Positions 24,760-61,021 are shown, numbered from the stretch's first letter. The stretch is DNA of 64,000 nt from an uncultured bacterium (GCA_965233125.1 CBDDRQ010000222.1:7806-71805), one strand, 5' to 3'. The notes: generated from the letters alone by a model not told the origin. A program made the numbers and translations.

Positions 24760-24766
24760 GTGGCCA

Positions 24767-25978: not shown

Positions 25979-25979
25979 C

Positions 25980-28882: not shown

Positions 28883-28942
28883 GTGGCGTGGCGCTGGGGT
28901 ACCGGCAGCGGAAGCGACCTGCGAATGGCTTGCGAGGCCGGC

Positions 28943-30328: not shown

Positions 30329-30396
30329 TCCCCTGCCCCAATTGAAGTAGTCTCAAAAGACGGTGACGCTGAAGGAGCGAGATGAATTGCAACTTC

Positions 30397-31611: not shown

Positions 31612-31618
31612 TTCAGCC

Positions 31619-42910: not shown

Positions 42911-43825
42911 ATGAGCACGACCAGGGACGCCACGGTACTCTTCGCCGACGTGAGCGGCAGCACGGCGCTCTACGAGAAGGCGGGGGACGCCGCGGCGGCC
43001 AGGGCGATCGAGGGCTGCCTCGGCGCGATGCGCCTGGCGGTGGAGGCGAACCGCGGGCGCGTGGTGAAGACGATCGGCGACGAGGTGATGGCGCTCTTTC
43101 CCTCGCCGGATGCCGCGGCGGCGGCGGCGGTGCGCATGCACCTCGGCGTGGAGGCGCTTCCCGCGGTGGGGGGCAGCGCGCTCGGGGTGCGCATCGCTTT
43201 CCACGCCGGGCCGGTGGTGCAGCGCGAGGACGACGTCTTCGGCGACACGGTCAACCTCGCCTCCCGCCTCGCCGGGCAGGCGATCAAGGGACAGGTACTT
43301 ACTTCCGAAGCGACGGCGGCGATGCTCAGTCCGCTGCTGCGCAGCTCGACCCGGCGGCTCTACCCGATCCAGGTCAAGGGCAAGGCCGACGAGGTGGCGC
43401 TCTACGAGTTCGTCTGGCGGCGCAGCCCGGACGTGACCGACGTGGCGGGCCGCCTGTCCGTGCCGCGCGCGCCGGCGCTCGTGCTGCGGCTGCGCTACCG
43501 GGGGCGCGAGGTGATGGGCCGGCGGCTCAACGAGTCGCTGGTGATCGGGCGCGATCCCGGCTGCGATCTGGTGATCGCCGACATCAAGGCCTCGCGCCAG
43601 CATTGCAGCATCGAGCGGCGCGACGGCCAGTTCGTGCTGCGCGATCACAGCGCGAACGGCACCTACCTCACCGTGGCGGGCGAGCCCGAGCTCGCCTTGC
43701 AGCGCCAGGGGTGCGCCCTGCGCGGGCACGGCTGGATCGCGCTCGGCCTGCCCCGCTCGCCGGCGCGGGACGCGGTGGAGTATTTTTGCGAGGCCGTGGA
43801 AGATCCGCCGGACTTACCACCTTGA
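42911..43825 (+). CDS. Class III adenylate/guanylate cyclase (catalytic motifs intact) fused to an FHA domain
   Basis: VLFADVSGSTALYE, VKTIGDEVMALF, FGDTVNLASRLAG. FHA: IGRDPGCDLVI...ASRQHC...DHSANGTYL. Starts 3 nt after the rfbD stop. Confidence 0.8.
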   Translation: MSTTRDATVLFADVSGSTALYEKAGDAAAARAIEGCLGAMRLAVEANRGRVVKTIGDEVMALFPSPDAAAAAAVRMHLGVEALPAVGGSALGVRIAFHAGPVVQREDDVFGDTVNLASRLAGQAIKGQVLTSEATAAMLSPLLRSSTRRLYPIQVKGKADEVALYEFVWRRSPDVTDVAGRLSVPRAPALVLRLRYRGREVMGRRLNESLVIGRDPGCDLVIADIKASRQHCSIERRDGQFVLRDHSANGTYLTVAGEPELALQRQGCALRGHGWIALGLPRSPARDAVEYFCEAVEDPPDLPP

Positions 43826-44949: not shown

Positions 44950-45807
44950 ATGCGCCAGCAAGAGTCGATTCTGGAGTTCCACAGGGGCGTCTATTTCAAG
45001 GTCGCGATCCTCCTGTGCGCCGCGGCGATCGCGGCGTACGCGCTGCACGAAGTCCCCTCCGCGTACTACAAGCCCTACGGCGGCACCTGGCTCGGCTACA
45101 CCCTGGGCGGGGTCGCCGCCTTCCTCGTCCTGTGGATGATGCTGCTCGGCATCCGCAAGCGCCGCTACCGCTCGAGCGTCGGCACGCTGCACGGCTGGAC
45201 CTCCTCGCACGTGTACCTCGGGGGCGCGGCGATCGTCATCGCGACGCTGCACGGCGGCTTCGAGTTCGGCTGGAACGTGCACACGTTCGCCTACGCGCTG
45301 ATGGTGCTGGTCATCGCCACCGGGGTGTACGGCGTGTACGCCTATCTCCACTACCCGACGCTCATCACGCAGAACCTCTCGGGCGACACGCTGGAGTCGA
45401 CGCTGCTCAAGATCGCCGACCTCGACCGGCGCTGCCGCAGGATCGCGCTCGACCTGCCCGACCAGGCGAACGCGCTGGTGATCGGCGCGACGCGCGCCGC
45501 GGCGCGCGAGGCCGAGCTCGGCGGGAGCCTCCGCCAGCGCCTGCGCGGTGAGCGCGTGCGCTGCCCGACGCGGGAGGCGACCGCGAAGCTCATGTCGCTC
45601 GGCGCGGGCTACACCGGCAAGCAGGCGGCGGCCAACGGCCAGCTCGTGAGCGCGATGACGCGCAAGAGCGCGCTCATCGACCGCGTGCGCCGCCACCTGC
45701 GCTACAGCGCGCTGCTGGAGGTCTGGCTCTACGCGCACGTGCCGCTCTCCTTCGCGCTGCTCGCGGCGCTGATCGCGCACGTCGTCTCGGTCTTCTACTT
45801 CTGGTAG
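44950..45807 (+). CDS. Five-TM membrane protein, candidate dihaem b-type cytochrome / quinol-interacting subunit
   Basis: ATG 44950 with RBS ggggagg. Two TM helices each carry H-x13-H (HVYLGGAAIVIATLH; HVPLSFALLAALIAH). Confidence 0.55.
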   Translation: MRQQESILEFHRGVYFKVAILLCAAAIAAYALHEVPSAYYKPYGGTWLGYTLGGVAAFLVLWMMLLGIRKRRYRSSVGTLHGWTSSHVYLGGAAIVIATLHGGFEFGWNVHTFAYALMVLVIATGVYGVYAYLHYPTLITQNLSGDTLESTLLKIADLDRRCRRIALDLPDQANALVIGATRAAAREAELGGSLRQRLRGERVRCPTREATAKLMSLGAGYTGKQAAANGQLVSAMTRKSALIDRVRRHLRYSALLEVWLYAHVPLSFALLAALIAHVVSVFYFW

Positions 45808-45815
45808 GCGGCGCC

Positions 45816-47486
45816 CTGGAGCTGCTCCTCAAGAACGCGGACACCGGGGAGCAGCGGCGCCTGCCCGGCGCGAACTTCCAGGTCGGGCGCGGCACGCAGT
45901 GCGAGCTGCACCTGCCCGACGCGCGCGTCGCGCTCGTGCACGCGCGCATCTCGCTCGGCGCGCAGGGCGCGGTGATGGAGGCGGTCGAGCAGAAGTTCGT
46001 GCACAACGACCGCGAGGTGGCGGGCGCGCAGCTCGCGGTGGGCGACTTCGTCGAGATCGGGCCGTTCCTGCTGAAGGTGGAGGAGCCGCCGCCGGAGATC
46101 CCCCTCGCGCTCTCGCTGCGCCTGTCCAAGCGCGTCTCGGGCAAGAGCGGCAGCGTGGTCTTCCGCGCGCTCACGCTCGCGCCGCGGCTTTCCAAGCGCC
46201 GGCTCTCCTACGCGGCGTTCTTCGGCACGCTGCTCGTCGCGCTCGTCGCGCCGATCGCCGCCGACCTGTGGGGCGACCGCGAGATGCCGCTCGCGGAGCC
46301 GGCGCGCACCCAGGTGCTCGAGGCGGTGCAGGCGATGACGGTGGGCCTCTCCCAGGCGTGGAACCCGGGCGAGCTCTCGCGCGGGCACCAGAACTTCGCC
46401 CACGACTGCCGCGCCTGCCACCAGGAGCCCTTCGTGCAGGTGAAGGACGGCGCCTGCATGGCCTGCCACGGCGGCGTGCGCGAGCACGTGGCAAGAGCGA
46501 AGCTCGCCGGGCCGATGGCGCACACCCTCGCCGAGACGCGCTGCGCCGAGTGCCACCGCGACCACAAGGGCCGCGCCATGGCGCCGCAGTCGCAGGACCT
46601 GTGCGCGAGCTGCCACGCCGACGTGCGCCACGCCGGCGTGCTGGCCGCCTCGCACAACGTCTCGGACTTCGCCACCAACCACCCGCCGTTCCGGCTCTCG
46701 CTCGTCGACGCCGGCAAGCCCAAGGAAATCCGCCGCGTGCGCCAGCGCGACCCGCAGGCGAAGCTCGAGGAGCGCTCGGGGCTCAAGTTCAACCACGTGC
46801 TGCATCTCGATCCTGCGGGCGTACGCCACCCCGACGCCAGGAAAAGAAAAACGCTCGAATGCGCGAGCTGCCACGCGGTCGACCCCGAAGGCATCGGCAT
46901 GAAGCCGATCGAGATGGAGAAGCACTGCAGCGCCTGCCACACCCTCGCCTTCGAGCCCGCGGTGACGAGCCGCGAGGCGCCGCACGCGCCGCTCGCCGAG
47001 GTGGAGCGCACGCTGCGCGAGTTCTACGCGCGCCTGGTGCTGGGCGACGTGCCCGCGGGCGTCACCCCGCCGCGCGGCCTGCCGCGCCTTCGCCCCGGCG
47101 CGACCCCCACGCCCGAGGAGCGCCGCGCCGCGATGCGCATCGCCGACGAGAAGGCGCGCCGGGCGTTGAGGGAGTTGGTCGAGACCAGGAAGGTATGCAC
47201 CACATGTCATTACACAGAAAAGACAAAAGGGAGAGTTGAAATTGCACCTGTGTCGATGACCCAGAACTGGATGCCCCAGGCGCTCTTCCGCCACGACCGG
47301 CACGCGACGCAGACCTGCACGAGCTGCCACGAGGTGCGCAGCTCGCGCGTGGCCTCCGACGTGGCGATGCCCGAGATCGGCCGCTGCCGCGACTGCCACG
47401 GCGGCGCGCAGGCGAAGGCGGCGAGGGTCGCCTCCGACTGCGCCACCTGCCACGTTTTCCACGGCGGCAAGGCCCCGTGGCGATGA
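45816..47486 (+). CDS. Membrane-anchored decahaem cytochrome c with N-terminal FHA-like domain (start codon unresolved)
   Basis: Ten CXXCH motifs (CRACH, CMACH, CAECH, CASCH, CASCH, CSACH, CTTCH, CTSCH, CRDCH, CATCH). One TM helix (YAAFFGTLLVALVAPIAA). FHA-like FQVGRGTQCELHLPD...HARISL...GDFVEIGPFLL lies upstream of the first ATG/GTG/TTG (45936). Confidence 0.7.
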   Translation: MELLLKNADTGEQRRLPGANFQVGRGTQCELHLPDARVALVHARISLGAQGAVMEAVEQKFVHNDREVAGAQLAVGDFVEIGPFLLKVEEPPPEIPLALSLRLSKRVSGKSGSVVFRALTLAPRLSKRRLSYAAFFGTLLVALVAPIAADLWGDREMPLAEPARTQVLEAVQAMTVGLSQAWNPGELSRGHQNFAHDCRACHQEPFVQVKDGACMACHGGVREHVARAKLAGPMAHTLAETRCAECHRDHKGRAMAPQSQDLCASCHADVRHAGVLAASHNVSDFATNHPPFRLSLVDAGKPKEIRRVRQRDPQAKLEERSGLKFNHVLHLDPAGVRHPDARKRKTLECASCHAVDPEGIGMKPIEMEKHCSACHTLAFEPAVTSREAPHAPLAEVERTLREFYARLVLGDVPAGVTPPRGLPRLRPGATPTPEERRAAMRIADEKARRALRELVETRKVCTTCHYTEKTKGRVEIAPVSMTQNWMPQALFRHDRHATQTCTSCHEVRSSRVASDVAMPEIGRCRDCHGGAQAKAARVASDCATCHVFHGGKAPWR

Positions 47487-49288
47487 GGCGGGCGCTGCTG
47501 CTGATCGCAGTCTTTCTTTCGGGTTGCGGTGGAGGCGGAGGGGAGGGCGACCAGAGCGGATGCAGGGGGGATTGCGCAGTTTCGGTTTCTCTATCTGTTT
47601 TAGAAGTTGAACAGGTAGTTCGACAAGCGGTCCACGAAGCGCAAGCGCGAGGGGCGCCGGCGACGATCGCGGTGACCGACCGCGTCGGCAACGTGCTCGC
47701 GGTGTTCCGCATGACCGGCGCTTCGCCCACGGCGACGGTGAGCTCGAACCGCGGCGTCACCGGCGGGCTCGAGGCGGCGGTGGTGCCCGACGAGCTCGCG
47801 GCGATCGCCAAGGCGATGACCGGCGCCTACCTCTCCTCGGAGGGCAACGCCTTCAGCACGCGCACCGCGAGCCAGATCGTGCAGGAGAACTTCAACCCCG
47901 GCGAGACCAACGCGCCGGGCGGGCCGCTCTTCGGCGTGCAGTTCTCTTCCCTCACCTGCTCGGACGTGGTGAACGTCTCCGCGGCCGTGGTCGCCGGGCC
48001 GAAGGGCTCGCCGCTCGGCCTCGCCGCCGACCCGGGCGGGCTGCCGCTCTACAAGTCGGGCACGGTGGTGGGCGGCGTGGGCGTGATGTCGGACGGCGCC
48101 TACGGCCTCGACGCGAACGTGCTGGATGTCGACCAGGACGCGGACGAGCTCGTCGCGGTGGCGGGCGCGCGCGGGTTCGACGCGCCGGCGAACCGCCGCG
48201 CCGAGCGCATCACCGCCGACGGGCGGAGCTTCCGCTTCGTCGACAGCGAGCTCCTCGTCAGCGACCCGGCGGCGGCGCCGGCCTTCGCGGTGCTGCCCGG
48301 CGTGCTCGTCGACGTGCCGGGGTTCTTCAGCCCGGCGGCGGTGCGCGCGGGCACGGCGTACGGCACGCCGGCCTCGGGCTACCGGGCGGACGCGAGCGCG
48401 GCCTTCGCGGGCCTGGGCGTGTTCGTGCTCGACGACGGCGGCGGCACGGCGCGCTTCCCGCCGCTCGCCGGCACCGACGGCCTGCTCGCGCAGAATGAAG
48501 TGCAGACGATCCTCGCCGAGGCGATGAAGGTGGCGAACCGCACGCGCGGGCAGATCCGCCAGCCGCTCGGCTCGGTCGCGCAGGTGAGCGTCGCGGTGGT
48601 CGACACCACCGGCGCCATCCTCGGCCTGGTGCGCAGCCGCGACGCGCCGGTGTTCGGCACCGACGTGGCGGTGCAGAAGGCGCGCGGCGCGCTCGTCTTC
48701 TCGCACCCGAACAGCGCCACCGACCTCGCCGCGCTCGCCGCCGCCGCGCCCTACGCCGCGGCGATGCAGGCGCTCATCCCCGGCGCGCTCTCGGACGGCA
48801 CCGCGTACTCGAGCCGCTCGATGGGCAACCTCGCGCGCCCGTTCCTCCCCGACGGCATCAACGGCAACGGCCCCGGGCCGCTCTCGAAGCCCTTCGCGCA
48901 GTGGAGCCCGTTCTCCACCGGCCTGCAGCTCGACCTCGTCGCCGCGCGCCTGGTCGCCAACCTGCCGGTCCCCGCCGCCGGCGCCTGCACTGGCCTCGCG
49001 CGCGCGGCGAACGGCATCCAGATCTTCCCCGGCGGCTTTCCCATCTTCCGCGCTAGCGCGCTGGTGGGCGCGATCGGCGTCTCCGGCGACGGCGTCGACC
49101 AGGACGACCTCGTCGGCTTCCTCGGCCTCGCCAACGCCGGCGCCGCCCTCGGCTCCGGCGTCGGCAACGCCCCCGCCGCCGTGCGCTCGAGCAACATCGC
49201 CGTCCCCGGCGGCAACCTGCGCTACGCCGGCTGCCCCGTCGCCCCCTTCCTCGATTCGACCGTCAGTGATGCCTGCACCGGCCTCTGA
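47483..49288 (+). CDS. Lipoprotein with two GlcG/HbpS (DUF336) haem-binding-like domains
   Basis: ATGA overlap with the upstream stop. Lipobox LSGC. IAVTDRVGNVLAVFRM...GGLPLYKSGTVVGGVGVMSDG, then VAVVDTTGAILGLVRS...FPGGFPIF...LVGAIGVSGDGVDQDD. Confidence 0.7.
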   Translation: MRRALLLIAVFLSGCGGGGGEGDQSGCRGDCAVSVSLSVLEVEQVVRQAVHEAQARGAPATIAVTDRVGNVLAVFRMTGASPTATVSSNRGVTGGLEAAVVPDELAAIAKAMTGAYLSSEGNAFSTRTASQIVQENFNPGETNAPGGPLFGVQFSSLTCSDVVNVSAAVVAGPKGSPLGLAADPGGLPLYKSGTVVGGVGVMSDGAYGLDANVLDVDQDADELVAVAGARGFDAPANRRAERITADGRSFRFVDSELLVSDPAAAPAFAVLPGVLVDVPGFFSPAAVRAGTAYGTPASGYRADASAAFAGLGVFVLDDGGGTARFPPLAGTDGLLAQNEVQTILAEAMKVANRTRGQIRQPLGSVAQVSVAVVDTTGAILGLVRSRDAPVFGTDVAVQKARGALVFSHPNSATDLAALAAAAPYAAAMQALIPGALSDGTAYSSRSMGNLARPFLPDGINGNGPGPLSKPFAQWSPFSTGLQLDLVAARLVANLPVPAAGACTGLARAANGIQIFPGGFPIFRASALVGAIGVSGDGVDQDDLVGFLGLANAGAALGSGVGNAPAAVRSSNIAVPGGNLRYAGCPVAPFLDSTVSDACTGL

Positions 49289-49370
49289 AAATCGGGGTCA
49301 GAGCCCGATTTCCTCGCGGGCACCGCTTGGCCTCGCACTTTCCGGAAATCGGGCTCTGACCCCGATTTTC
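49287..49370. repeat. REP/MITE-like element with a 27-nt perfect inverted repeat
   Basis: 49287-49313 gaaaatcggggtcagagcccgatttcc is the reverse complement of 49344-49370, with a 30-nt spacer. Overlaps the TGA stop of the DUF336 gene. Confidence 0.85.
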
Positions 49371-49373
49371 TTG

Positions 49374-51077
49374 ATGGTCTTTTTCTTCGGAAATGCTTTC
49401 TCACAGGAAAGCGTGGAACGAAGAAGGCCCGGAATCGAGCCGACGCCGCAGGTGGAGCGCGAGGCGCCGGCGCCGAGGCCGCCGCTGGTGGAGCGAGAGT
49501 CGCTGCCCGTCGACGACCGCTGGCGCATCATGAAGTCGCTCGAATTGCTGCCCTACCGGCGCTTCGATCCCTACAACCCGAACGTGCTGAAGGGCGACCT
49601 GCCGCTCGAGAGCGGCGCGTTCGCGGGCTGGTTCCTCAACCTCACCGCGGTCTCCGACACGGTGCTGGAGTTCCGCCGCCTGCCCACGCCCGCGGGCGTG
49701 CAGGCGACGCAGACGCCGACGCCGGGGCCGTTCGCGGCCGGGCGGCAGGCGACGCTCTCGGAGAACCTGATCCTCAGCCTCGCGCTCATCAAGGGCGACA
49801 CGGTGTTCCGCCCGCCCGACTACGAGCTGCGCATCGTGCCGGTGGTGAACCTCAACCGCTCGGAGGCCGAGGACCGGCGCGTGCTGCAGGCCGACCCCAA
49901 CCAGGGCCGCGCGCGCAACGACAGCTTCGTCGGCATCCAGGAGCTCTTCGTCGACAAGCACCTGCGCGACGTCTCGGCGAACTACGACTTCGACAGCCTG
50001 CGCGTGGGCGTGCAGCCCTTCAACGCCGACTTCCGCGGGTTCCTGTTCATCGACCAGCCCTTCGGCGTGCGCGTGTTCGGCACGCGCGAGGCGAACCGCT
50101 GGCAGTACAACGCCGCGTGGTTCCGGCGCCTCGAGAAGGACACCAACAGCGGCTTGAACGACATCGGCGAGCGCCTGCGCGCCGACGACGTCTACGCCTT
50201 CAACCTCTACCGCCAGGACTGGCCGGTGCTGGGCTTCACCACGCAGGGCATCGTGCTCCACAACCGCAACCGCGAGGGCGGGCGCGGGCAGTTCCTGAAC
50301 GAGAACCGCTTCGTCGAGCGCCCGGCGGTGTTCGGCAGCGGCCGGCCGCGCAAGTACGACGTCACCTACCTCGGCGGCAGCGGCGACGGGCACTTCGGCC
50401 GCTGGAACCTCTCGGCCACCGCCTACCACGCCTTCGGCGAGGAGGAGCGCGGCCAGCTCTCCGGGCGCGCCGAGCGCATCACCGCGTGGTTCGGCGCCGC
50501 CGAGCTCTCGCGCGACTTCGACTGGATGCGCCTGCGCGCGCACGGCGCCTACGCCTCGGGCGACCGCGACCCCTTCGACGGCGACGCCGAAGGCTTCGAC
50601 GCGGTGCTCGAGAACCCGGCCTTCGCCGGCGCCGACACCAGTTACTGGATCCGCCAGTCGGTGCCGCTCATCGGCGGCGGCGGCGTCGCGCTCGCGATCC
50701 GCAACGGCATGCTCGCGTCGCTGCGCACCTCGCGCGAGCACGGGCAGTCGAACTTCACCAACCCGGGCCTGCGCCTCGTCGGCGTCGGCGCCGACTTCGA
50801 CCTCGCGCCGGAGCTTCGCCTCATCGCCAACTTCAACCACATCGCCCTCGACAACCTCTCCTCGCTCGCCGCGCTGAGGAACCAGCGGCTCACGAGCGGC
50901 GACATCGGCTGGGACCTCTCGGCCGGCGTCCAGTACCGGCCGTTCTTCACCCAGAATGTGGTGGTGGACGCCTCCCTCGCCGTCCTCTTCGCCGAGGACG
51001 GCCTGCGCGCGCTCTACGGCGATGCGGTCGGCAGGAAGCAGTATTCGGCGCTTCTGAATATGGTGTTGACGTTTTGA
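49374..51077 (+). CDS. Putative outer-membrane beta-barrel protein
   Basis: 567 aa with many alternating-hydrophobic strands and a C-terminal ...ALLNMVLTF (terminal Phe). The N-terminal signal peptide is very short (MVFFFGNAFSQE) if the ATG at 49374 is used. Confidence 0.6.
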   Translation: MVFFFGNAFSQESVERRRPGIEPTPQVEREAPAPRPPLVERESLPVDDRWRIMKSLELLPYRRFDPYNPNVLKGDLPLESGAFAGWFLNLTAVSDTVLEFRRLPTPAGVQATQTPTPGPFAAGRQATLSENLILSLALIKGDTVFRPPDYELRIVPVVNLNRSEAEDRRVLQADPNQGRARNDSFVGIQELFVDKHLRDVSANYDFDSLRVGVQPFNADFRGFLFIDQPFGVRVFGTREANRWQYNAAWFRRLEKDTNSGLNDIGERLRADDVYAFNLYRQDWPVLGFTTQGIVLHNRNREGGRGQFLNENRFVERPAVFGSGRPRKYDVTYLGGSGDGHFGRWNLSATAYHAFGEEERGQLSGRAERITAWFGAAELSRDFDWMRLRAHGAYASGDRDPFDGDAEGFDAVLENPAFAGADTSYWIRQSVPLIGGGGVALAIRNGMLASLRTSREHGQSNFTNPGLRLVGVGADFDLAPELRLIANFNHIALDNLSSLAALRNQRLTSGDIGWDLSAGVQYRPFFTQNVVVDASLAVLFAEDGLRALYGDAVGRKQYSALLNMVLTF

Positions 51078-54000
51078 TAAAAAAGATAAAAACCATTTTG
51101 CTTGGAATGTGCCTCTCTGCTTCTTCGTGGGCGGATTGCACTTCCTGCCACACCGCAACCGACCGGGCGACGATGCACGCGAACCCGGCGGTGTCGATCG
51201 CGTGCACCGGCTGCCACGGCGGCGACGAGAGCGTGAAGCGGCCGGCGGGAAGCGAGTACCGAGGCGAGAAGGGGGCGGAGTATTTCGAGGCGATGTACAG
51301 GGCGCACGTGCAGCCGCGCCATCCGCGCGAGTGGGGCTGGCCGGCGGCGGCGAACCCGGAGCGCTCCTACACGCTGCTCAACCGCGAGCGCCCGGGGTTC
51401 GTGCGCTTCATGAACCCGGGCGACTACCGCGTGGCGCGCGAGACGTGCGGAAAGTGCCACATGGACATCGTGCAGGCCGCCGAGCGCAGCCTGATGGCCA
51501 CCGGCGCCATGTTCTGGAACGGCGCCGCCTACAACAACGGCATGCTGCCCTTCAAGCGCGGGGTGCTGGGCGAGTCCTATACGCGGGACGGGCGGCCGGC
51601 GGCGGTGCGCGGGCCCGCGGGAGCTGATCCGGCGCGCGGCATCCTCGCCGAGCTCTGGCCGCTGCCGGCGTGGGAGACGGTGCCGCCGGCGGACGTCTTC
51701 CGCGTCTTCGAGCGCGGCGGGCGGGTGATCAGCAGCATCTTTCCGGAGGTGGGGCTACCCAACCCCACCGGGCGGCTGCAGACGCTGGACGAGCCCGGCC
51801 GTCCCGACATCCGCCAGTCGAACCGCGGCCCGGGCACCGGCGCGCGCATCGCGGTGCCGCTCATCAACATCGCGAAGACGCGCCTCAACGACCCGATGAT
51901 GTGGTTCCTGGGCACGAACGACCACCCGGGCGACTACCGCTCCTCGGGCTGCACCTCGTGCCACGTGGTGTACGCGAACGACCGGGAGCCCGCGCATTCC
52001 GGGCCGTACGCGAAGCACGGCCACGAGGGAAAGAGCGTAAGCGCCGACCCGACCATCCCGAAGGACCGCCCCGGGCATCCCATCAAGCACGAGCTCACGC
52101 GCGCCATTCCTTCAGCGCAGTGCATGGTGTGCCACATGCACCAGCCCAACGTGTTCGTGAACAGCTTCTACGGCACGACGATGTGGGACTACGAGGCCGA
52201 CGCGCCGTCGATGTGGCCCAAGCAACAGCGCTACCCGAGCGCCGAGGAGCGCCGGCGCATCAACGACCGCAACCCCGAGTCGGCGGCGGCGCTGGGCAAC
52301 TGGGGGAACGTGAGCTTCCTCAAGGACGTGTGGATGCTCAACCCGAAGCTGAAAGACACGCAGTTCTCCGACTACCACGGCCACGGCTGGAACTTCCGCG
52401 CCGTGTTCAAGCGCGACCGCAAGGGCACGCTGCTCGACGCCGAGGACAAGCCGGTCGCCGACGACGACCCGGCGAAGTTCAAGAAGGCGGTGCACCTGAA
52501 GTCGATCCACCTGGAGAAGGGCATGCACTGCGTCGACTGCCACTTCTCGCGCGACGCGCACGGCACGGGCGAGCTCCACCAGGAGGTGGCCGCGGCGATC
52601 GAGGTGGAGTGCGCCGACTGCCACGGCACCGCCGACCGCTACCCGCGTCTTCGCACCACCGGGCCGGCGGCGCCCACGGGCGGCACCGACCTCTCGCTCG
52701 CGCGCACGCCCGACGGGCGCCGGCGCTTCGAGTGGCAGGGGAGCGTGCTCTACCAGCGCTCGATGGTGACCCCGGGCCTCGAATGGCGCGTCTCGCTCGT
52801 CAAGGACAGCGTCGACCCGAAGCACGGCGAGTACAACGCAAGATCGGCGCGCGCGAAGCTCGTGGCGCGCGGGATCTTCGACAACTACAAGCAGAGCTTC
52901 GGCACCTCGGTGCCGGCGTCCGAGCGCGCGCACCGCGACGACGAGATGGCGTGCTACAGCTGCCATTCGTCGTGGGCGACGAGCTGCTCGGGCTGCCACC
53001 TGCCGATCGAGGCGAACTGGAAGACCGAGCGGCTGCACTACGAGGGCGGCGAGACGCGCAACTTCGCCACCTACAACCCGCAGGTCGCGCGCTCGGACGC
53101 CTACCAGCTCGGCCGCCACGGCAGCGTGAAGAAGAACCGCATCGCGCCGGTGCGCTCGTCCTCGGCGCTGGTGCTCTCCTCCACCAACGCCAACCGCGAG
53201 CGCATCTACGTGCAGCAGCCGCCGACCGCGGCGAGCGGCTACTCCAGCCAGGCGTTCGCGCCGCACTACCCGCACACCGAGAGGAAGACCGAGACCAAGG
53301 GCTGCGCCGACTGCCACGTCTCGGCGGCGAACGACAACAACGCCATCATGGCGCAGCTCCTGCTGCACGGCACCGGGTTCGTCAACTTCGTGGGCCTCAA
53401 CGCCTGGGTGGGCGAGGAGCGCCACGTCGAGGCGGTGCAGGTCACCGAGTGGGAAGAGCCGCAGGCGGTGATCGGCTCCTACCTGCACCGCCACGCGTAT
53501 CCCGACTGGTACTCGGCGCATCAGCAAAGAAAGCAACGACTTCCGGAAGCGCACGATCGCGCTACCGGCGGGGGCGTCGGCTGCCTGCAGCTCCGCGGCG
53601 AGTACCTGCACGTCGCCGAAGGCGCCGGCGGCTACCGGGTCTACGACGTCGCCTCGATCGCCAACAAGGGCGTCTCGCAGCGCATCGTCACCGCCCCCTT
53701 CTCCGCGCGCGGGCACGATGCGCACGTCGCGACCCCGGAAGCCACCTGCGTCGCGCTCCCGACCAACCAGCCCATCGCCCCTTTCAAGAACGCGGGCGAG
53801 CGCATGCGCAAGGACAACCAGGAGCAGCCCTTCCACCCCATCTACCGCTACGCCGCGATCACCGACGCGCGCGAGGGGCTGATCCTCGTCGACGTCGACA
53901 CCCTGCAAGACGGCGAGCCGCGCAACAACTTCCTGAAACGCGCGCTAACCTGGGACGGCGGCGGCGCCCTGAAGGGCGCCCGCCACGTCACGCTAGCCGG

Positions 54001-54688
54001 GCATTACGCCTATGTTTCTACGGATAAGGGGGTCGTGGTTGTAAACCTGGATGACCCCCTCAAGCCGAAGATTGCAAATACCCTTCACCTTCCGAACTCA
54101 AAAGCGACCGCGCTGCAGTTCCGCTACCTCTTCATCGTCGAGGGCATCGGCTTGCGCGTCGCCGATATCACCATTCCCGAAAGAATCAGGATTCTGGATG
54201 CAGAAATTCCGCTGACTGATGCCCATAAGGTCTACGTAGCGAGAACCTATGCTTACGTCGCGGCGGGGAAGCAGGGGCTGGCCATCGTCGACATCGAGAA
54301 CCCGGAGAAGCCCAAGCTGCATTCGCTCTTCGACGCGGGCGGGGCGCTTTCCGACGCGCGAGACGTGGTGGTGGGCTCGACCAACGCCTCGCTCTTCGCG
54401 TACGTCGCCGACGGCGCGAACGGGCTCAAGGTGATCCAGCTCACCGCGCCCGACACGCAGCCGAAGTTCTACGGCTTCAGTCCCGAGCCCAAGCCGCGGC
54501 TCATCGCGTGGCGCAAGACGCGAAGCCCGGCGCTCGCGCTGTCGCGGGGCCTCGAGCGCGACCGCGCGGTGGACGAGACCGGGCACCAGATGGCGGTGTT
54601 CGGGCGCGTCGGCTCCAGACCGTTCAACCTCGAAGAGCAGCGGCGTCTTTATCTCAAGCCCGATGGGACGCCGTGGGTGGTCAGGTGA
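51074..54688 (+). CDS. Secreted decahaem cytochrome c fused to a C-terminal LVIVD-repeat beta-propeller
   Basis: TTG start in a TTGA overlap. Signal peptide IKKIKTILLGMCLSASSWA. Ten CXXCH motifs (CTSCH, CTGCH, CGKCH, CTSCH, CMVCH, CVDCH, CADCH, CYSCH, CSGCH, CADCH). Last ~370 aa carry repeats such as YAYVSTDKGVVVVNLDDPLKP, YAYVAAGKQGLAIVDIENPEKP and FAYVADGANGLKVIQL. Confidence 0.75.
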   Translation: MIKKIKTILLGMCLSASSWADCTSCHTATDRATMHANPAVSIACTGCHGGDESVKRPAGSEYRGEKGAEYFEAMYRAHVQPRHPREWGWPAAANPERSYTLLNRERPGFVRFMNPGDYRVARETCGKCHMDIVQAAERSLMATGAMFWNGAAYNNGMLPFKRGVLGESYTRDGRPAAVRGPAGADPARGILAELWPLPAWETVPPADVFRVFERGGRVISSIFPEVGLPNPTGRLQTLDEPGRPDIRQSNRGPGTGARIAVPLINIAKTRLNDPMMWFLGTNDHPGDYRSSGCTSCHVVYANDREPAHSGPYAKHGHEGKSVSADPTIPKDRPGHPIKHELTRAIPSAQCMVCHMHQPNVFVNSFYGTTMWDYEADAPSMWPKQQRYPSAEERRRINDRNPESAAALGNWGNVSFLKDVWMLNPKLKDTQFSDYHGHGWNFRAVFKRDRKGTLLDAEDKPVADDDPAKFKKAVHLKSIHLEKGMHCVDCHFSRDAHGTGELHQEVAAAIEVECADCHGTADRYPRLRTTGPAAPTGGTDLSLARTPDGRRRFEWQGSVLYQRSMVTPGLEWRVSLVKDSVDPKHGEYNARSARAKLVARGIFDNYKQSFGTSVPASERAHRDDEMACYSCHSSWATSCSGCHLPIEANWKTERLHYEGGETRNFATYNPQVARSDAYQLGRHGSVKKNRIAPVRSSSALVLSSTNANRERIYVQQPPTAASGYSSQAFAPHYPHTERKTETKGCADCHVSAANDNNAIMAQLLLHGTGFVNFVGLNAWVGEERHVEAVQVTEWEEPQAVIGSYLHRHAYPDWYSAHQQRKQRLPEAHDRATGGGVGCLQLRGEYLHVAEGAGGYRVYDVASIANKGVSQRIVTAPFSARGHDAHVATPEATCVALPTNQPIAPFKNAGERMRKDNQEQPFHPIYRYAAITDAREGLILVDVDTLQDGEPRNNFLKRALTWDGGGALKGARHVTLAGHYAYVSTDKGVVVVNLDDPLKPKIANTLHLPNSKATALQFRYLFIVEGIGLRVADITIPERIRILDAEIPLTDAHKVYVARTYAYVAAGKQGLAIVDIENPEKPKLHSLFDAGGALSDARDVVVGSTNASLFAYVADGANGLKVIQLTAPDTQPKFYGFSPEPKPRLIAWRKTRSPALALSRGLERDRAVDETGHQMAVFGRVGSRPFNLEEQRRLYLKPDGTPWVVR

Positions 54689-55995
54689 AAGGCTTGGTCT
54701 TTCTAATGGGGTTCTTCCTTGGTACAGCGTTCGCGGAGACGCCACTGCCGCCGCAGTCGCCGCACAAAACCCTCGGCGTCGCCACGTGCGCCTCGAGCCT
54801 GTGCCACGGCTCGGTGCAGCCCTGGAGCGACGGCAAGATCCGCCAGGACGAGTACGTGCTGTGGTCGAGGAATGATCCGCATGCACGCAGTTACGAGGTT
54901 CTCCTGAATAAAACTTCTGAAGAGATAGTGAAAAAGCTCGGACTGCCGAAACCCGCGCACGAGACCGCCGAGTGCCTGGACTGCCACACGCACAACGTGC
55001 CGCCGGCACGGCGCGGGCCGGACTTCCTCGTCGCCGACGGCATTCAGTGCGAGGCTTGTCACGGGCCGGCCGGTGGCTGGCTGAAGAGCCACGTCGAGAA
55101 GGACGCGAAGCGGGGGGCGAGCCTCGCGCGCGGGCTCTTTCCGACGCGCAACCCGGTGCGGCGCGGCGAGCTTTGCATGAGCTGCCACTTCGGCAACGCG
55201 CAGAAGCTGGTCACGCACCGCATGATGGCCGCGGGGCATCCGCGCCTCGCCTACGAGTTCGACACCTTCACGCACCTGCAGCCGGCGCACTACGGCGGCG
55301 CACGCGGCGCCGCGGGCGCCGAGGGGCTCGCCGACGGCGTGCGCAACTGGGCGATCGGCCAGGCGCTGATGGCCGAGACGCTGCTCTGGCTGCTGGTGGA
55401 TCCGAAGCGCGGCCGCGACGGGTTCTTTCCCGAGCTGGTGCTCTTCGACTGCCACGCCTGCCATCACCCGATGTCGGACAAGCGCAACGCCGGCGCGCGC
55501 CTGGGCGTGGCGCCGGGCGCGGTGCGCCTGAACGACGCGAACCTCATCATGGTCCGCCACATCGCGCGCCGCGTCGCGCCGGGCGAGGCCGAGGCGCTCG
55601 CGCAGGCGAGCAAGGCGCTGCACGCGGCGCTCGCCGGCGGCGGCGACGTTCTTCTGCAGGCAAGAGAGTTACGTGAAAAGATAGGGACACTTGTTTCAGG
55701 GATAGAAAAACATCAATTCTCCGCGGCGGACCTGCGCGGTATCTTCCAGGGGCTGATCGACGACGGGCTGTCTGGGCATTACAGCGACTACCAGGGAGCG
55801 GAGCAGGCAGCGATGGCATTGCAGGCAATAGCGGACTTCATGGCGCGGCGCGGCCTTGCCGCGGCGCCGGCGCTGCGCCCGGCGCTCGAGCGCGTGATGG
55901 CGGCGGTGGCGAACGACGAGGCCTACCGGCCTGAGCAATTCGCCGCGGCGCTGCGCGAGCTGCGCGCGGGCATCGAGCAGGCGGGAAGGCAATGA
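54685..55995 (+). CDS. Periplasmic multihaem cytochrome c (c554-like), 4 CXXCH + 1 CX4CH
   Basis: GTGA overlap. Signal peptide. CASSLCH, CLDCH, CEACH, CMSCH, CHACH. Helical C-terminal half. Confidence 0.7.
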   Translation: MKGLVFLMGFFLGTAFAETPLPPQSPHKTLGVATCASSLCHGSVQPWSDGKIRQDEYVLWSRNDPHARSYEVLLNKTSEEIVKKLGLPKPAHETAECLDCHTHNVPPARRGPDFLVADGIQCEACHGPAGGWLKSHVEKDAKRGASLARGLFPTRNPVRRGELCMSCHFGNAQKLVTHRMMAAGHPRLAYEFDTFTHLQPAHYGGARGAAGAEGLADGVRNWAIGQALMAETLLWLLVDPKRGRDGFFPELVLFDCHACHHPMSDKRNAGARLGVAPGAVRLNDANLIMVRHIARRVAPGEAEALAQASKALHAALAGGGDVLLQARELREKIGTLVSGIEKHQFSAADLRGIFQGLIDDGLSGHYSDYQGAEQAAMALQAIADFMARRGLAAAPALRPALERVMAAVANDEAYRPEQFAAALRELRAGIEQAGRQ

Positions 55996-58391
55996 ACAAG
56001 ATAACGATCGCGGTGGTGGGCTCCGGGCCGGCGGGACTCTCCTGCGCCGCGCGCGCGGCGGAGAACGGCGTCGCGCACGTGCTGCTCGAGTCGGGGGAGG
56101 CGCTCTCCACCACCATCCAGCGCTACCAGAAGGGCAAGCACGTGATGGCCGAGCCTTCCGTGCTGCCGCTGCGGGCGGCTGTCGGCTTCCAGGCGGGGAA
56201 GCGCGAGCAGGTGCTGGGCACTTGGGAAAAGGATCTTCTAGGTAGAAAAGTCAATGTGCACTTCCGCTCGGGTGTGAAAAGCATTCGCGGCGAGAAGGGC
56301 GCCTTCGAGATTGAGACGGCGGCGGGGGAGACCTGGCAGGCCGAGAACGTGGTGCTGTGCATCGGGCTGCAGGGGAACCTGCGCAAGCTCGGTGTGCCGG
56401 GCGAGGACCTCGGGATGGTGCAGTACCAGCTCGACGACGCCGGCGCCTTCAAGGGCGAGACGATCGTGGTGGTGGGCGGGGGCGACGCGGCGATCGAGAA
56501 CGCGCTCGCGCTCGCCGACGCGGGGAACCGCGTCATCATGCTCAACCGCACCGAGGAATTCGCGCGCGCGAAGCAGGGCAACCTCGACCTGGTCCTCGAG
56601 GCGATCCGCGAGGGCGGGATCGAGTGCCGCTACAGCACCTCCGCGGTGCGGGTGGAGGAGGTGCCCACCGAGGGCAAGCGCGGGCGCTTCGTCGTGCTCG
56701 GGCCGCAGGGGGAAGGCGTCATCGCCTGCGACCGCATCATCGCTCGCCTTGGCGCCATTCCTCCGCGAAAGCTCGTGGAGAGCTTCGGCGTGAAGTTCCC
56801 CAGCGCCGACGCCGACGCGGTGCCGCGCCTGTCGGTGAACTACGAGTCGAACGTGCCGGGGCTCTACATCATCGGCGCGCTCGCCGGCTATCCGCTCATC
56901 AAGCAGTGCCTGAACCAGGGCTACGACGCGGTGGAATTCATCCTCGGGCGCGACCTCAAGCCCGTCGACGAGCCGCTGCTCAAGCAGAAGTTCGCGAACT
57001 TCCCGCGCGACGGCGGCGTCTCGCGCGCGCTCGCGCTGGTGCAGAAGCAGGTGCCGCTGTTCGCCGACATGAGCATCCTGCAGCTGCGGGAATTCATGCT
57101 CGAGAGCGAGGTGCACGCGCTCAAGCCGGGCAAGGTGATCTTCAACAAGGGCGACTACACCAACAGCTTCTTCTCGATCCTCGAGGGCGAGGTGCTGGTG
57201 GAGCTGCCCGCCAAGGAGGGCAAGGTCGAGCACCTGCGCCTGGGGCGCGGCGAGTTCTTCGGCGAGCTGGGGCTCCTCTCGGGCCGGCGCCGCTCGAGCA
57301 CGGTGCGCGCGGGCAAGGGCTGCATCCTCATCGAGTCGCCGCGGCGCTCGATGCTGCGCCTCATGGGCAACGTCGAGTCGGTGAAGCGCAAGATCGACCA
57401 GACCTTCCTGCGCCGCGCGGTGCGCGCCTACATCGCGCCCTGGGTCTCGCACGCCGACCTCGACGAGATGATCGCCGAGGCGACGGTGAAGACCTTCCCC
57501 GCGGGCGCGACGCTCTTCAGCGAGGGCGACGAGCCCGACGGGCTGCACCTCATCCGCAAGGGCTCGGTGACGATCTCGCGCACCATCGGCGGCAAGGACG
57601 TGGTGCTCTCCTACGTCGCCGCCGGCAACTACGTCGGCGAGATGGCGCTCATGTCGGAGGCGAAGCGCACGGCGACGGTGCGCGCCGCGGTGACCACCGA
57701 GACGATCGTGCTGCCGCCGCTGCAGTTCCGGCAGGTGCTCGAGCGCAACCAGACGATGCGCGGCGGCATCGAGGCGCAGGTGCTGCAGCGCCTCACGCAG
57801 AACGTGAAGCTGGAGGAGTCCGACGCCGGCAGCCTGATGAGCTTCCTCGTCGCCCAGGGCCTGGGCGAGGCGACCGACGTGCTGCTCATCGACGAGGGCC
57901 TGTGCATCCGCTGCGACAACTGCGAGAAGGCCTGCGCCGACACCCACCAGGGCAGCTCGCGCCTGGACCGCCAGGCGGGGCCGACCTTCGCCAACATCCA
58001 CGTGCCGACCTCGTGCCGGCACTGCGAGAACCCGCGCTGCATGAAAGACTGCCCGCCGGACGCGATCCACCGCAACCCGAACGGCGAGGTCTACATCCAG
58101 GACACCTGCATCGGCTGCGGCAACTGCCAGAAGAACTGCCCCTACGGCGTGATCCAGATGGCCCCGGCCGCCGGCAGCAGCCGCCCGAGCCTGTGGGCGT
58201 GGCTCCTCACCGGCCTCACCGACGAGCCGGGGCGCCGGCAGGTGAAGTCGACCAAGGACGAGCAGAAGGTCGCGGTGAAGTGCGACATGTGCAAGGAGCT
58301 CTCCGGCGGGCCGGCCTGCGTGCGCGCCTGCCCCACGGGCGCGGCGATCCGGGTCAGCCCGGAGCGCTTCCTCGACTACACCGGTCGCTGA
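55992..58391 (+). CDS. Flavoprotein (FAD/NAD(P) dinucleotide-binding pair) + two cNMP-binding domains + polyferredoxin (4 Cys clusters)
   Basis: VVGSGPAGLSCA and VVVGGGDAAIENA Rossmann motifs with no CxxC redox pair. FGELGLLSGRRRSSTVRA and VGEMALMSEAKRTATVRA (cNMP phosphate-binding cassettes). CIRCDNCEKAC, CRHCENPRCMKDCP, CIGCGNCQKNCP, CDMC...CVRACP. Confidence 0.75.
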   Translation: MNKITIAVVGSGPAGLSCAARAAENGVAHVLLESGEALSTTIQRYQKGKHVMAEPSVLPLRAAVGFQAGKREQVLGTWEKDLLGRKVNVHFRSGVKSIRGEKGAFEIETAAGETWQAENVVLCIGLQGNLRKLGVPGEDLGMVQYQLDDAGAFKGETIVVVGGGDAAIENALALADAGNRVIMLNRTEEFARAKQGNLDLVLEAIREGGIECRYSTSAVRVEEVPTEGKRGRFVVLGPQGEGVIACDRIIARLGAIPPRKLVESFGVKFPSADADAVPRLSVNYESNVPGLYIIGALAGYPLIKQCLNQGYDAVEFILGRDLKPVDEPLLKQKFANFPRDGGVSRALALVQKQVPLFADMSILQLREFMLESEVHALKPGKVIFNKGDYTNSFFSILEGEVLVELPAKEGKVEHLRLGRGEFFGELGLLSGRRRSSTVRAGKGCILIESPRRSMLRLMGNVESVKRKIDQTFLRRAVRAYIAPWVSHADLDEMIAEATVKTFPAGATLFSEGDEPDGLHLIRKGSVTISRTIGGKDVVLSYVAAGNYVGEMALMSEAKRTATVRAAVTTETIVLPPLQFRQVLERNQTMRGGIEAQVLQRLTQNVKLEESDAGSLMSFLVAQGLGEATDVLLIDEGLCIRCDNCEKACADTHQGSSRLDRQAGPTFANIHVPTSCRHCENPRCMKDCPPDAIHRNPNGEVYIQDTCIGCGNCQKNCPYGVIQMAPAAGSSRPSLWAWLLTGLTDEPGRRQVKSTKDEQKVAVKCDMCKELSGGPACVRACPTGAAIRVSPERFLDYTGR

Positions 58392-59712: not shown

Positions 59713-60156
59713 ATGCGGCTGAAGATCATTCCCAAGACGGAGCTGTCGCCACCACAGCTTCATGATGCGGCGCTGCGCATCTTCGCGCCCGAGCACGCGT
59801 GCGACATCGGACCGCAGTATTTCTGGAACCGGCCCGAGCGCGACCGCCACCATTTCGCCCTTTTCGATGCCGAGTCCGAAGAGTTCGTCGGGACGGTGTA
59901 TTGCGTCGTCACTCCGCCGGTAGCGCAGGATTTCACCTGGTGGCTCGACTCCCGGATGCGCAAGAAGGGCTATTGGCGCGCGCTCGCGGACGATCTGGCC
60001 GCGTATCTCAGGAAAAGGCGCGGGGTGGAGAAGGTCGGATTCATCGTTTTCGGGAAGCACAATCCCGAGGCTTCGCAGAAGATCGCGCAGCGTCTTCGCA
60101 GTCACTTCGACAAGGCGGCGACGATCGGCGAGGCAAGCGCGGGTCGCGCGCGCTAG
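59713..60156 (+). CDS. Hypothetical protein (147 aa), weak GNAT-like motif
   Basis: MRKKGYWRALADDL resembles GNAT motif A. Otherwise unassigned. Confidence 0.35.
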   Translation: MRLKIIPKTELSPPQLHDAALRIFAPEHACDIGPQYFWNRPERDRHHFALFDAESEEFVGTVYCVVTPPVAQDFTWWLDSRMRKKGYWRALADDLAAYLRKRRGVEKVGFIVFGKHNPEASQKIAQRLRSHFDKAATIGEASAGRAR

Positions 60157-60617
60157 TGGGTGGCTCGCGGGGCGGACTCTTCCATCGAGCGTGAAGTATT
60201 CGCCGTCACCCTCACGTTCACGCCTTCGAGCCTTTGCACCGCGCCGAGGTTCTCGTTCATGCGGCGCAAGCGCTCCACCACCGCCTTCAGCACGTAGCGG
60301 CTGAAGGCCGGGGTTTCGTGCACCAGGAGATCGAATTCCGCGACGCCGATGGGAACCAGTCTCGAGCGCGTGCGCGTTACGACGGTGGCGCTGCGGGGCT
60401 TCTGGTCGACCAAAGCCATTTCTCCAAGGAGCGACCCCGGCCCGGCGATCTCGACGATGGTGGAGCCGACGAGGATGTTGGCGTACCCCTCCATCACGAC
60501 GTACATGACCTCGCCCGGATCGCCGGACTTGAAAAGCTCGACTCCGGCCGGCAGGCTGACGACCTTCGCCGCCTGCCGGAAATGCTCGATGACATCGAAC
60601 GGCCGCCTGGCTTCCAT
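60153..60617 (-). CDS. Stand-alone cyclic-nucleotide-binding domain protein (no HTH)
   Basis: ATG 60617 with RBS ggaaggggg. LFKSGDPGEVMYVVMEGYANI...GSLLGEMALVDQKPRSATVV. Confidence 0.7.
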   Translation of the reverse strand: MEARRPFDVIEHFRQAAKVVSLPAGVELFKSGDPGEVMYVVMEGYANILVGSTIVEIAGPGSLLGEMALVDQKPRSATVVTRTRSRLVPIGVAEFDLLVHETPAFSRYVLKAVVERLRRMNENLGAVQRLEGVNVRVTANTSRSMEESAPRATH

Positions 60618-61021
60618 GGAGCCCCCTTCCGTAGCGATGCCTATGGTCCCCCGCGGGCGATTGTCGGTCAATGGAGAAGCATAGTAGGAACCTCCCATTC
60701 ACACGCCGATCGCCCGCGGGCATGATCTCGGGCCGACTATGCTCCCCGCAATCCCCCGCAAACTCGTCGACCAACCCAGCGCGAACGACAGGCTGTTTCA
60801 TGGTCGATCGGACGTCCAGGTACCCCGGCCGTCAGGCGGACGTATTGCGACTGCCTACCTGGACGTGGCGAGCGCGCGCATCGAGGTGCATTACGCCCGC
60901 GAGGCAGTCCTTCGAGAACGGGATCTACTTCACCGGCTCGGGCTGTTGCGACCATCCGCTTAGAGCTGTCATTGTTTGCAAGCCGCCGCGCCGGCGCCAT
61001 CCCGCGCGCCTAAGATGCGGC

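Follow-up and report, generated by a model that had tools for sequence, protein, structure and literature searches.

A widely conserved seven-gene cluster of multihaem cytochromes, an outer-membrane barrel and a flavo-iron-sulfur protein: a candidate regulated NAD(P)H-fed electron-transfer system

Results

Seven genes for a candidate electron-transfer system

The subject of this work is a cluster of seven genes, here called g1 to g7, located at positions 44950-58391 (+ strand) of a 64,000-nucleotide stretch of DNA from an uncultured bacterium (GCA_965233125.1 CBDDRQ010000222.1:7806-71805). The whole stretch, which has a G+C content of about 70%, is referred to as the window. In a preliminary description made from the sequence, the cluster had been proposed to be a candidate trans-envelope electron conduit of non-canonical composition. 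All seven open reading frames (ORFs) listed there were recovered at their positions in an ORF check, and nearly every domain call was backed by Pfam and NCBIfam profile searches. Conservation, gene order and structure models now indicate that the seven genes are one real, widely conserved and functionally uncharacterised electron-transfer system, in which a regulated cytoplasmic NAD(P)H flavoprotein appears to be wired to an outer-membrane barrel by way of two haems in the membrane and 25 haems of the c type. The genes are as follows (TM, transmembrane; cNMP, cyclic nucleotide).

44950..45807, + strand: g1, inner-membrane protein with five TM helices, putative di-haem b-type cytochrome (285 aa, His motifs)
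45816..47486, + strand: g2, cytoplasmic FHA domain, one TM helix and periplasmic decahaem c-type cytochrome (PF16697, Cytochrome_C7)
47483..49288, + strand: g3, lipoprotein, HbpS/GlcG-like (DUF336) on both halves (HbpS-like, 77.6 bits)
49374..51077 (start perhaps 49269 or 49266), + strand: g4, outer-membrane beta-barrel (AlphaFold2, Foldseek)
51074..54688, + strand: g5, secreted decahaem c-type cytochrome with a C-terminal LVIVD beta-propeller (TTG start)
54685..55995, + strand: g6, periplasmic c554-like cytochrome (Cytochrome_C554, 38 bits)
55992..58391, + strand: g7, cytoplasmic FAD/NAD(P) oxidoreductase with two cNMP-binding domains and a four-cluster ferredoxin (Pfam)

Start and stop codons overlap by 4 nt at four junctions (ATGA at 47483, TTGA at 51074, GTGA at 54685 and ATGA at 55992), and inspection of each junction sequence confirmed that these overlaps are real. 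The proposal of one translationally coupled unit holds for the four overlaps and fails between g3 and g4, which are uncoupled and have a 27-nt inverted repeat in their junction.

Inner-membrane module: g7, g1 and g2

Protein g7 matched Pyr_redox_3 (107 bits; also Pyr_redox_2), cNMP_binding in two stretches (129 bits) and Fer4_11 (42 bits). Together with four ferredoxin-type Cys motifs at residues 638, 675, 706 and 763 in its 4Fe-4S dicluster domains, these matches substantiate the FAD/NAD(P) module, the two cNMP-binding domains and the polyferredoxin named in the preliminary description. Both cNMP-binding domains retain the phosphate-binding signature G-E...R-[ST]-[AS] as read from the sequence, and no signal peptide was seen in such a reading.

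Four strong hydrophobic segments and a weaker one at about residues 85-105 make up the five TM helices of g1. The motif W-x3-H-x13-H occurs twice, on TM3 and TM5 (H87/H101 and H263/H277; WTSSH, WLYAH), and TM4 bears a TGxxG motif (TGVYG). The two H-x13-H helices had been recognised beforehand, and all four of their His are retained by each of 12 homologues, the most distant of which is 25% identical. Charge distribution, read by eye, indicates that the N-terminus is cytoplasmic, as is the loop of 120 residues that joins TM4 to TM5. The match of g1 to Ni_hydr_CYTB (prokaryotic cytochrome b561) scored 28.5 bits, below the cutoff of 30.1, and eight of the 12 homologues likewise matched this family below its cutoff. 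A distant homologue at locus L085 scored 27.6 bits against Ferric_reduct (PF01794; cutoff 28), a family for which window g1 gave no match in Pfam. A search of the PDB with a g1 family profile found no solved relative. From the invariant His pairs we infer haem binding and read g1 as a putative di-haem b-type transmembrane carrier.

In g2, an FHA domain (PF16697, 40.5 bits; cutoff 33.2) is followed by a TM helix (residues 129-153) and ten CXXCH motifs in c7/c3 modules (Cytochrome_C7, 59 bits), so that all three elements of the earlier account were found. None of the ten haem motifs varies among 55 homologues, and nine more His are likewise invariant. The start given there, at about 45816, is doubtful: no canonical start codon lies at this position, where the ATG of the homologues aligns with a CTG. 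The earliest ATG, GTG or TTG is a GTG at 45936, and its use would cut about 40 aa from the FHA domain. Either translation begins here at the rare start codon CTG, or a base has changed or was misread, which would truncate the FHA domain.

Cytochromes g5 and g6

An ordinary signal peptide, ten CXXCH motifs in c3/c7 modules and an LVIVD match (47.9 bits) were found in g5, in line with the preliminary description, of which only the start codon had to be corrected to TTG; the window protein has no lipobox. In homologues with as little as 41% identity, the ten CXXCH motifs show no or hardly any variation; at least ten His outside these motifs are shared between phyla, and LVIVD was matched in 17 of 17 homologues. 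Four of these 17, and not window g5, also matched the MtrC/MtrF II-IV domain PF22113. With a median identity of 63% (33-54% for the others), g5 is the most conserved protein of the set. AlphaFold2, run on a shallow alignment of 30 sequences at least 69% identical, modelled the C-terminal 350 residues as a confident beta-propeller (pLDDT 80-90). Foldseek returned only generic WD40-like and BamB-like propellers because the haem region stayed below pLDDT 50. Sequence and profile searches of the PDB found no relative of g5, with NrfA and ActA as marginal matches at E ~0.007.

The earlier placement of g5 at the cell surface is not borne out. The signal peptide is ordinary, a lipobox is present in some lineages only, and type II secretion genes are seldom adjacent, even though LVIVD propellers are usually annotated on surface proteins. 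Type II secretion genes adjoin the cluster at only three places, on four fetched loci, and this linkage was therefore rejected as a general sign of g5 surface export. At L002 (1-2507 and 17512-23732; also at L049 and L063) the cluster lies inside a type II secretion cluster, with gspC-G on one side and gspH-L on the other.

The label of a c554-like pentahaem cytochrome stands for g6 as regards the Cytochrome_C554 match and the number of five motifs; it needs amendment in that four are CXXCH and one is CX4CH (CASSLCH). This pattern is kept in 51 of 51 homologues, and five further His and one Met are conserved for the five haems. Marginal matches only were obtained in PDB searches (c554 at E 0.05). 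Thus, haem motifs are conserved in homologues of all three c-type cytochromes, g2, g5 and g6. Conserved extra His are about as numerous as the c-haems, a ratio near 1:1 that fits a six-coordinate, bis-His electron-transfer wire. As at least ten non-motif His are conserved in g5, a role of this protein as a haem-based catalytic enzyme was considered unlikely.

Outer-membrane module: g3 and g4

HbpS-like matches in g3 fall into three stretches that span both halves of the protein, and an N-terminal lipobox (LSGC) is present, which supports the idea of a two-half DUF336 lipoprotein. A lipobox-like motif occurs in 38 of 56 g3 homologues. PDB searches gave weak matches only, to EfgA, the C-terminal domain of PduO and HbpS. 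The designation of g3 as a haem sensor goes too far, given that it is a family name.

The AlphaFold2 model of g4 (38-sequence alignment, mean pLDDT 65) is a barrel of 18 strands, in agreement with the outer-membrane barrel predicted beforehand from sequence hallmarks. The protein ends in LTF, i.e. with a C-terminal aromatic residue, and residues 409-462 form a conserved, poorly modelled insert with an invariant GGGG. In a Foldseek search against the PDB, AlgE ranked first (E = 3e-12, TM score 0.4-0.55), followed by Occ and general porins among the top 50. The score against Alginate_exp (PF13372) was 17.4 bits, below the cutoff of 25.2, and g4 has neither a MtrB_PioB match in Pfam nor a CXXCH motif. 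Export of an alginate-type polysaccharide by g4 was rejected since no polysaccharide genes are conserved beside the cluster; the likeness to AlgE is one of fold only. Many g4 homologues (P0146-P0240; e.g. L002 7409-9997) bear at least one N-terminal SH3 domain (SH3_3/SH3_4), which the window protein lacks.

The start of g4 is ambiguous. ATG 49374 leaves a 10-aa signal-like peptide (MVFFFGNAFS), and ATG 49269 or GTG 49266 would give a long one; with a start at 49269, part of that signal peptide would be encoded by the inverted repeat of the junction.

49287..49370, + strand: perfect 27-nt inverted repeat with a 30-nt spacer, g3/g4 junction

The repeat overlaps the g3 stop codon, ends 3 nt before ATG 49374 and is followed by a U-rich stretch. 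Its RNA has a predicted folding energy of -67.8 kcal/mol (z = -10). No second copy was found in the window, and none of 88 related loci contains the repeat. It may have arisen as an insertion of the REP/MITE type; alternatively, it may act between the cistrons as an attenuator or stabiliser.

Distribution, gene order and lineage variants

In a g5 sequence search, identity did not fall below 69% in any of the best 120 matches, which cover about 98% of the length; those with a name are all annotated as hypothetical. An exhaustive search yielded 1,244 clusters of g5 relatives at E <= 1e-30 (50%-identity representatives), and a scan of one genome per species found a relative in at least 586 species. 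Hosts belong to the Alpha-, Beta- and Gammaproteobacteria, with distant members in Planctomycetota, Acidobacteriota, Nitrospirota, KSB1 and others. Named hosts, largely from lineages of aerobic heterotrophs or methanotrophs, include Sphingomonadales, Caulobacterales, Lysobacterales, Burkholderiales and methanotrophs. Among cultured carriers are Stagnimonas aquatica THS-13, Sphingobium subterraneum DSM 102255, Hyphococcus sp. ECK-19 and Fontimonas sp.

Synteny was determined by tblastn of g1-g7 on 85 fetched loci. All seven genes were present in 36 of them, and contig ends cut most others. Gene g4 was followed by g5 in 81/81 cases, g3 by g4 in 62/63, g1 by g2 in 55/55 and g7 by g1 in 40/54. Three main orders were observed: (i) g1-g2-g3-g4-g5-g6-g7, as in the window; (ii) g7-g1-g2-g3-g4-g5(-g6); (iii) g6-g3-g4-g5 with g7-g1-g2 on the opposite strand. 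The adjacency counts and the three orders define two units, [g7-g1-g2] and [g3-g4-g5], with a mobile g6 whose position differs between genomes. Some lineages lack g3. The conservation of gene neighbourhood looked for across genomes is evident, and the gene set is kept across phyla.

Domain make-up varies between lineages. At the Nitrospirota locus L088 a full g7-g1-g2-g3-g4-g5-g6 set was found, with a nucleotide cyclase gene just upstream of the g7 homologue. The electron-transfer part of the Acidobacteriota locus L087 comprises the barrel, g5, a small cytochrome, a cNMP+iron-sulfur protein, the 5-TM protein and the decahaem cytochrome; a triple-FHA protein and an FHA+FAD_binding_6+NAD_binding_1 protein are also encoded there. 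L086 has a similar set, with a Pyr_redox+FHA+Fer2 protein. At L085, genes for a cNMP+iron-sulfur protein, the membrane protein and the decahaem cytochrome are present, and no FHA or flavoprotein gene was seen. NAD(P)H flavoprotein, iron-sulfur, FHA and cNMP domains nevertheless recur with the b-type protein and the decahaem cytochrome in most lineages examined. Such fusion and fission of domains between lineages is strong evidence that the functions act together and, along with synteny across phyla, upholds the view that the genes are one functional unit.

Genes flanking the cluster are not conserved between loci, and no terminal oxidase, bc1, quinone-related or reverse-electron-flow genes are linked to it. 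In a neighbour survey of 88 related loci (cyclases counted within 10 kb of the cluster), 9 loci had a class III cyclase near the cluster, 13 a PP2C phosphatase, 6 a Ser/Thr kinase and 10 a relative of an FHA-SulP-STAS permease; two of these ten, L086 and L087, may match via the FHA region only. At least one such signalling neighbour was found in 28 of the 88 loci. The cNMP-binding domains of g7, the FHA domain of g2 and these flanking signalling genes fit a tightly gated system. The FHA-SulP-STAS anion permease and PP2C phosphatase genes (L033 11013-13100; L034 9648-10742) recur mostly in Gammaproteobacteria.

Neighbouring genes in the window

Two genes for potential signalling proteins lie near the cluster.

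42911..43825, + strand: class III nucleotide cyclase fused to an FHA domain (Guanylate_cyc 70 bits, FHA 49.7 bits)
60153..60698, - strand: stand-alone cNMP-binding protein (cNMP_binding 55.6 bits)

The cyclase-FHA protein is a possible regulator of the system. Its gene is located 1.1 kb upstream of the cluster and is not contiguous with it, as a gene for a PIN-domain (VapC-type) toxin lies between them (44203-44589, with a probable small upstream antitoxin gene). An association of the cNMP-binding protein with the seven-gene system is only a possibility. In the product of the gene directly downstream of the cluster (58475-59692), a FecR domain is fused with an OmpA-like barrel of eight strands; this gene is not kept beside the cluster in other genomes. 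Farther away, four consecutive ORFs at 39634-42907 resemble rmlB, rmlA, rmlC and rmlD of dTDP-rhamnose synthesis, as judged from N-terminal motifs only. The block from 18000 to 32000 has a G+C content of 0.53-0.58, compared to 0.66-0.73 elsewhere in the window, and is possibly a horizontally acquired island. A scan for promoters and terminators gave one promoter-like site, at 43887, and was uninformative for the cluster; an Rfam search gave no match.

Comparison with known systems

The closest published counterpart is PCC4, a candidate porin-cytochrome cluster predicted solely by bioinformatics, for which inward electron uptake was proposed (He et al. 2017, PMC5566968). PCC4 consists of a porin gene and three multihaem cytochrome genes, comparable to g4 and to g2, g5 and g6. 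Its inner-membrane protein has five TM helices, W-x3-H-x13-H on TM3 and TM5 and S/T-G-x-x-G on TM4, all of which are found in g1. In PCC4 subgroup II, a PF13247 iron-sulfur gene lies upstream of the membrane-protein gene, as g7 with its Fer4_11 domain does relative to g1 in most loci counted above; the window itself differs in having g7 at the far end of the cluster. Redox genes of variable domain make-up, subgroups with opposite orientation, and hosts among Alpha- and Gammaproteobacteria and Planctomycetes are further common traits. By contrast, haem counts are 4, 5 and 10 in PCC4 and 10, 10 and 4+1 in all lineages counted here, and the PCC4 text is without the LVIVD propeller, the HbpS-like lipoprotein and the FHA or cNMP domains of the seven-gene cluster. 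These likenesses are drawn from the published description rather than from a sequence comparison, and a search seeded with a distant homologue returned no names from Zetaproteobacteria or Hyphomicrobium. The same authors also note pairs of multihaem cytochrome and membrane protein without porins (PMC5566968).

A preprint on Ferrigenium straubiae (bioRxiv 10.64898/2026.01.22.701106) reports a module of an iron-sulfur protein, a 5-TM protein and an FHA-nonahaem fusion, of unknown function, which was expressed under all conditions tested; FHA-multihaem fusions are said there to be previously unreported. Compared by description, this is the three-gene architecture of g7-g1-g2, in which the multihaem cytochrome has a single TM helix and a cytosolic FHA domain. 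The haems number nine instead of the ten of g2, and the preprint describes no genes for a barrel, a propeller-cytochrome or a c554 next to the module. Its authors reported no redox motif in the 5-TM protein, whereas g1 has four invariant His.

With MtrCAB, MtoAB and PioAB the cluster shares decahaem cytochromes, an outer-membrane barrel and a large terminal cytochrome with a beta-rich non-haem domain. MtrB is a 26-strand barrel that encloses MtrA (PDB 6R2Q), compared to the 18 strands of g4, and the donor to Mtr is a quinol dehydrogenase of the CymA type instead of a cytoplasmic flavo-iron-sulfur protein such as g7. Scores against DmsE/MtrA (TIGR03508) were 23.4 bits for g2 and 24.5 bits for g6 (cutoff 192); OmcA/MtrC (TIGR03507) was matched only by g6, with 18 bits (cutoff 209), and ExtM of the Geobacter Ext cluster only locally, with 75.5 bits (cutoff 800). 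No component reached the curated cutoffs for DmsE/MtrA, OmcA/MtrC, ExtM, HmcA or GSU2203. Cyc2 has a haem motif fused to its barrel, unlike g4. On these grounds we concur with the preliminary description that none of the proteins is MtrA/B/C, PioAB/MtoAB or Cyc2.

Two further groups resemble the inner-membrane module. In ferric reductases and NADPH oxidases (FRD/NOX, with MsrQ-type partners), as apparently in g1, two H-x13-H pairs on two helices are positioned for two stacked b-haems. Here as there, the partner is an NAD(P)H flavoprotein, linked as g7 or as an FNR-type protein (in Acidobacteriota of the FAD_binding_6/NAD_binding_1 type as in NOX), and activity appears to be regulated. FRD/NOX proteins differ in having six helices compared to the five of g1; the flavoprotein is separate here, with iron-sulfur clusters in between. 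Tmc and Hmc of sulfate reducers likewise connect cytoplasm and periplasm, by means of a cytoplasmic iron-sulfur protein, a b-type cytochrome in the membrane and a multihaem cytochrome in the periplasm. They differ in sequence (HmcA, 17 bits; cutoff 400) and hosts; an outer-membrane module and signalling domains are additional features of the present cluster.

Literature searches for LVIVD-cytochrome fusions, for HbpS/DUF336 with multihaem proteins and for cNMP or FHA domains with cytochromes found only papers on Tenderiales, that of He et al. (2017) and the Ferrigenium preprint. They turned up no functional study, and no account of all seven genes together with the LVIVD propeller, the HbpS-like lipoprotein and gating by cNMP. 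The composition is therefore non-canonical, as had been claimed, in so far as the full unit was not found described; its parts are foreshadowed by PCC4 and the Ferrigenium module. We class the system with the porin-cytochrome, or transmembrane multihaem, kind.

Discussion

From the observed domains, cofactor motifs, topology signals, gene linkage and barrel fold we infer an order of carriers, a direction of flow, a mode of gating and candidate acceptors. We hold with moderate confidence that the system serves second-messenger-gated export of NAD(P)H electrons through a chain of two modules. In the cytoplasm, g7 would pass electrons from NAD(P)H to FAD and on to four [4Fe-4S] clusters, and its two cNMP-binding domains, placed between the flavin and iron-sulfur parts, would gate this flow. 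Two bis-His b-haems in g1, stacked across the inner membrane as in ferric reductase/NOX or cytochrome b, would then deliver electrons to the ten periplasmic c-haems of g2, whose cytoplasmic FHA domain may bind phosphothreonine and so dock or regulate the complex. The five-haem g6 would ferry electrons from g2 to g5, and the ten-haem wire and propeller of g5 would act with the 18-strand g4 and the lipoprotein g3 at the outer membrane.

Net electron flow is most likely outward from NAD(P)H, because the cytoplasmic end is an NAD(P) flavoprotein, no quinone, oxidase or bc1 genes are linked to the cluster and the named hosts are mostly aerobic heterotrophs or methanotrophs. Export of NAD(P)H electrons is thermodynamically easy for such organisms. 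Candidate acceptors are Fe(III) or Mn(IV) minerals, humics and O2.

Barrels of 18 strands belong to the size class of substrate channels and polymer exporters, and an AlgE/Occ-like g4 in place of a 26-strand sheath of the MtrB type makes a cytochrome threaded through the barrel unlikely. Since g4 is too narrow to enclose a cytochrome, passage of a haem chain is less likely than that of a substrate, a product or a g5 linker. The invariant adjacency of g4 and g5 argues that both work together; g4 may serve as substrate or product channel, as anchor or as linker passage. Accordingly, the porin-cytochrome logic of the preliminary description is retained with respect to a cytoplasmic donor, periplasmic multihaem proteins and an outer-membrane barrel, and is not supported for the Mtr-style sheath and a surface-exposed g5. 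Similarly, its trans-envelope conduit is partly supported, as a probable inner-membrane and periplasmic chain up to the barrel, and not for the crossing of the outer membrane by electrons.

Several points speak against gated export as set out above. The direction of flow cannot be read from sequence, and the scheme is built on genes and models. The modelled 18-strand barrel offers no obvious route for electrons over the outer membrane, and the haem geometry of g5 and its contact with g4 are not derivable at the pLDDT of the haem region. Protein g1 stays under the Pfam cutoffs of both candidate families and has a profile without solved relative. The lipoprotein g3 is dispensable in several lineages, and the iron-sulfur protein of L085 is without a flavin domain, so that coupling to NAD(P)H may be indirect there.

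A rather unlikely alternative that we nonetheless take seriously is a purely periplasmic pathway, in which g5 would be the terminal reductase (or oxidase) for a soluble molecule that enters via g4, and no electrons would cross the outer membrane. It draws on the resemblance of g4 to AlgE and Occ porins, i.e. to substrate channels or exporters, on the ordinary signal peptide of window g5 with type II secretion genes rarely adjacent, and on the degree to which g5 is conserved (63% vs 33-54%), as would be the case for a specific active partner. However, the conserved His suffice for six-coordination of all ten g5 haems, so that no open catalytic haem is evident. The usual annotation of LVIVD propellers on surface proteins, the lipobox on g5 in some lineages and the match of some g5 homologues to MtrC/MtrF haem domains also count against this pathway.

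If electrons flowed in the opposite direction, an extracellular or periplasmic donor such as Fe(II) or Mn(II) would enter through the barrel and give up electrons at g5/g6, from where g2 and g1 would conduct them to the cytoplasm or the quinone pool. The g1 signature and the adjacency of iron-sulfur gene and membrane-protein gene match PCC4 from genomes of iron oxidisers, the related module of iron-sulfur, 5-TM and FHA-multihaem proteins is expressed in the iron oxidiser Ferrigenium, and a small metal-admitting barrel recalls the logic of Cyc2 as generally understood. Yet electrons from Fe(II) or Mn(II) would have to go uphill to reach an NAD(P)-linked flavoprotein as endpoint, lithotrophy is not known for most named hosts, and none of the oxidase, bc1 or reverse-electron-flow genes that might be expected is linked to the cluster. 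We therefore regard inward uptake as improbable.

The idea that cytochrome, porin and oxidoreductase genes with no relation to each other ended up side by side by accident, to which the non-conserved flanks and the large hairpin between g3 and g4 might be thought to point, is practically incompatible with the presence of all seven genes in 36 of 85 loci (most others being cut by contig ends), with key-pair adjacencies far beyond chance (81/81, 62/63, 55/55) and with the retention of the gene set across phyla.

Within gated export of NAD(P)H electrons, a more specific and decidedly speculative proposal is that the system is a bacterial counterpart of NADPH oxidase or ferric reductase that spans the Gram-negative envelope. 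A cyclic-nucleotide or phosphorylation signal would then release electrons through the 2 b-haems and 25 c-haems to the surface of ordinary aerobic heterotrophs, where the acceptor would be O2, with superoxide as the product, or else humics or oxides of Fe(III) or Mn.

The window is one ordinary member of a very large family, with at least 586 species genomes in many phyla and all named members annotated as hypothetical. The Sphingomonadales, Caulobacterales, Lysobacterales, Burkholderiales and methanotrophs that carry it are, to our knowledge, not thought of as organisms that transfer electrons to the outside. Multihaem chains are normally fed by the quinone pool; a multihaem chain fed by NAD(P)H and gated by cyclic nucleotides and via FHA/phospho-signals would newly link the redox state of the cytoplasm to the envelope and the environment. 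Culturable carriers make the system testable. If true, the reading as an NADPH-oxidase-like system would give a molecular basis for the widespread NAD(P)H-stimulated production of extracellular superoxide by bacteria not regarded as electroactive, and it would also account for reductive metal acquisition by such bacteria.

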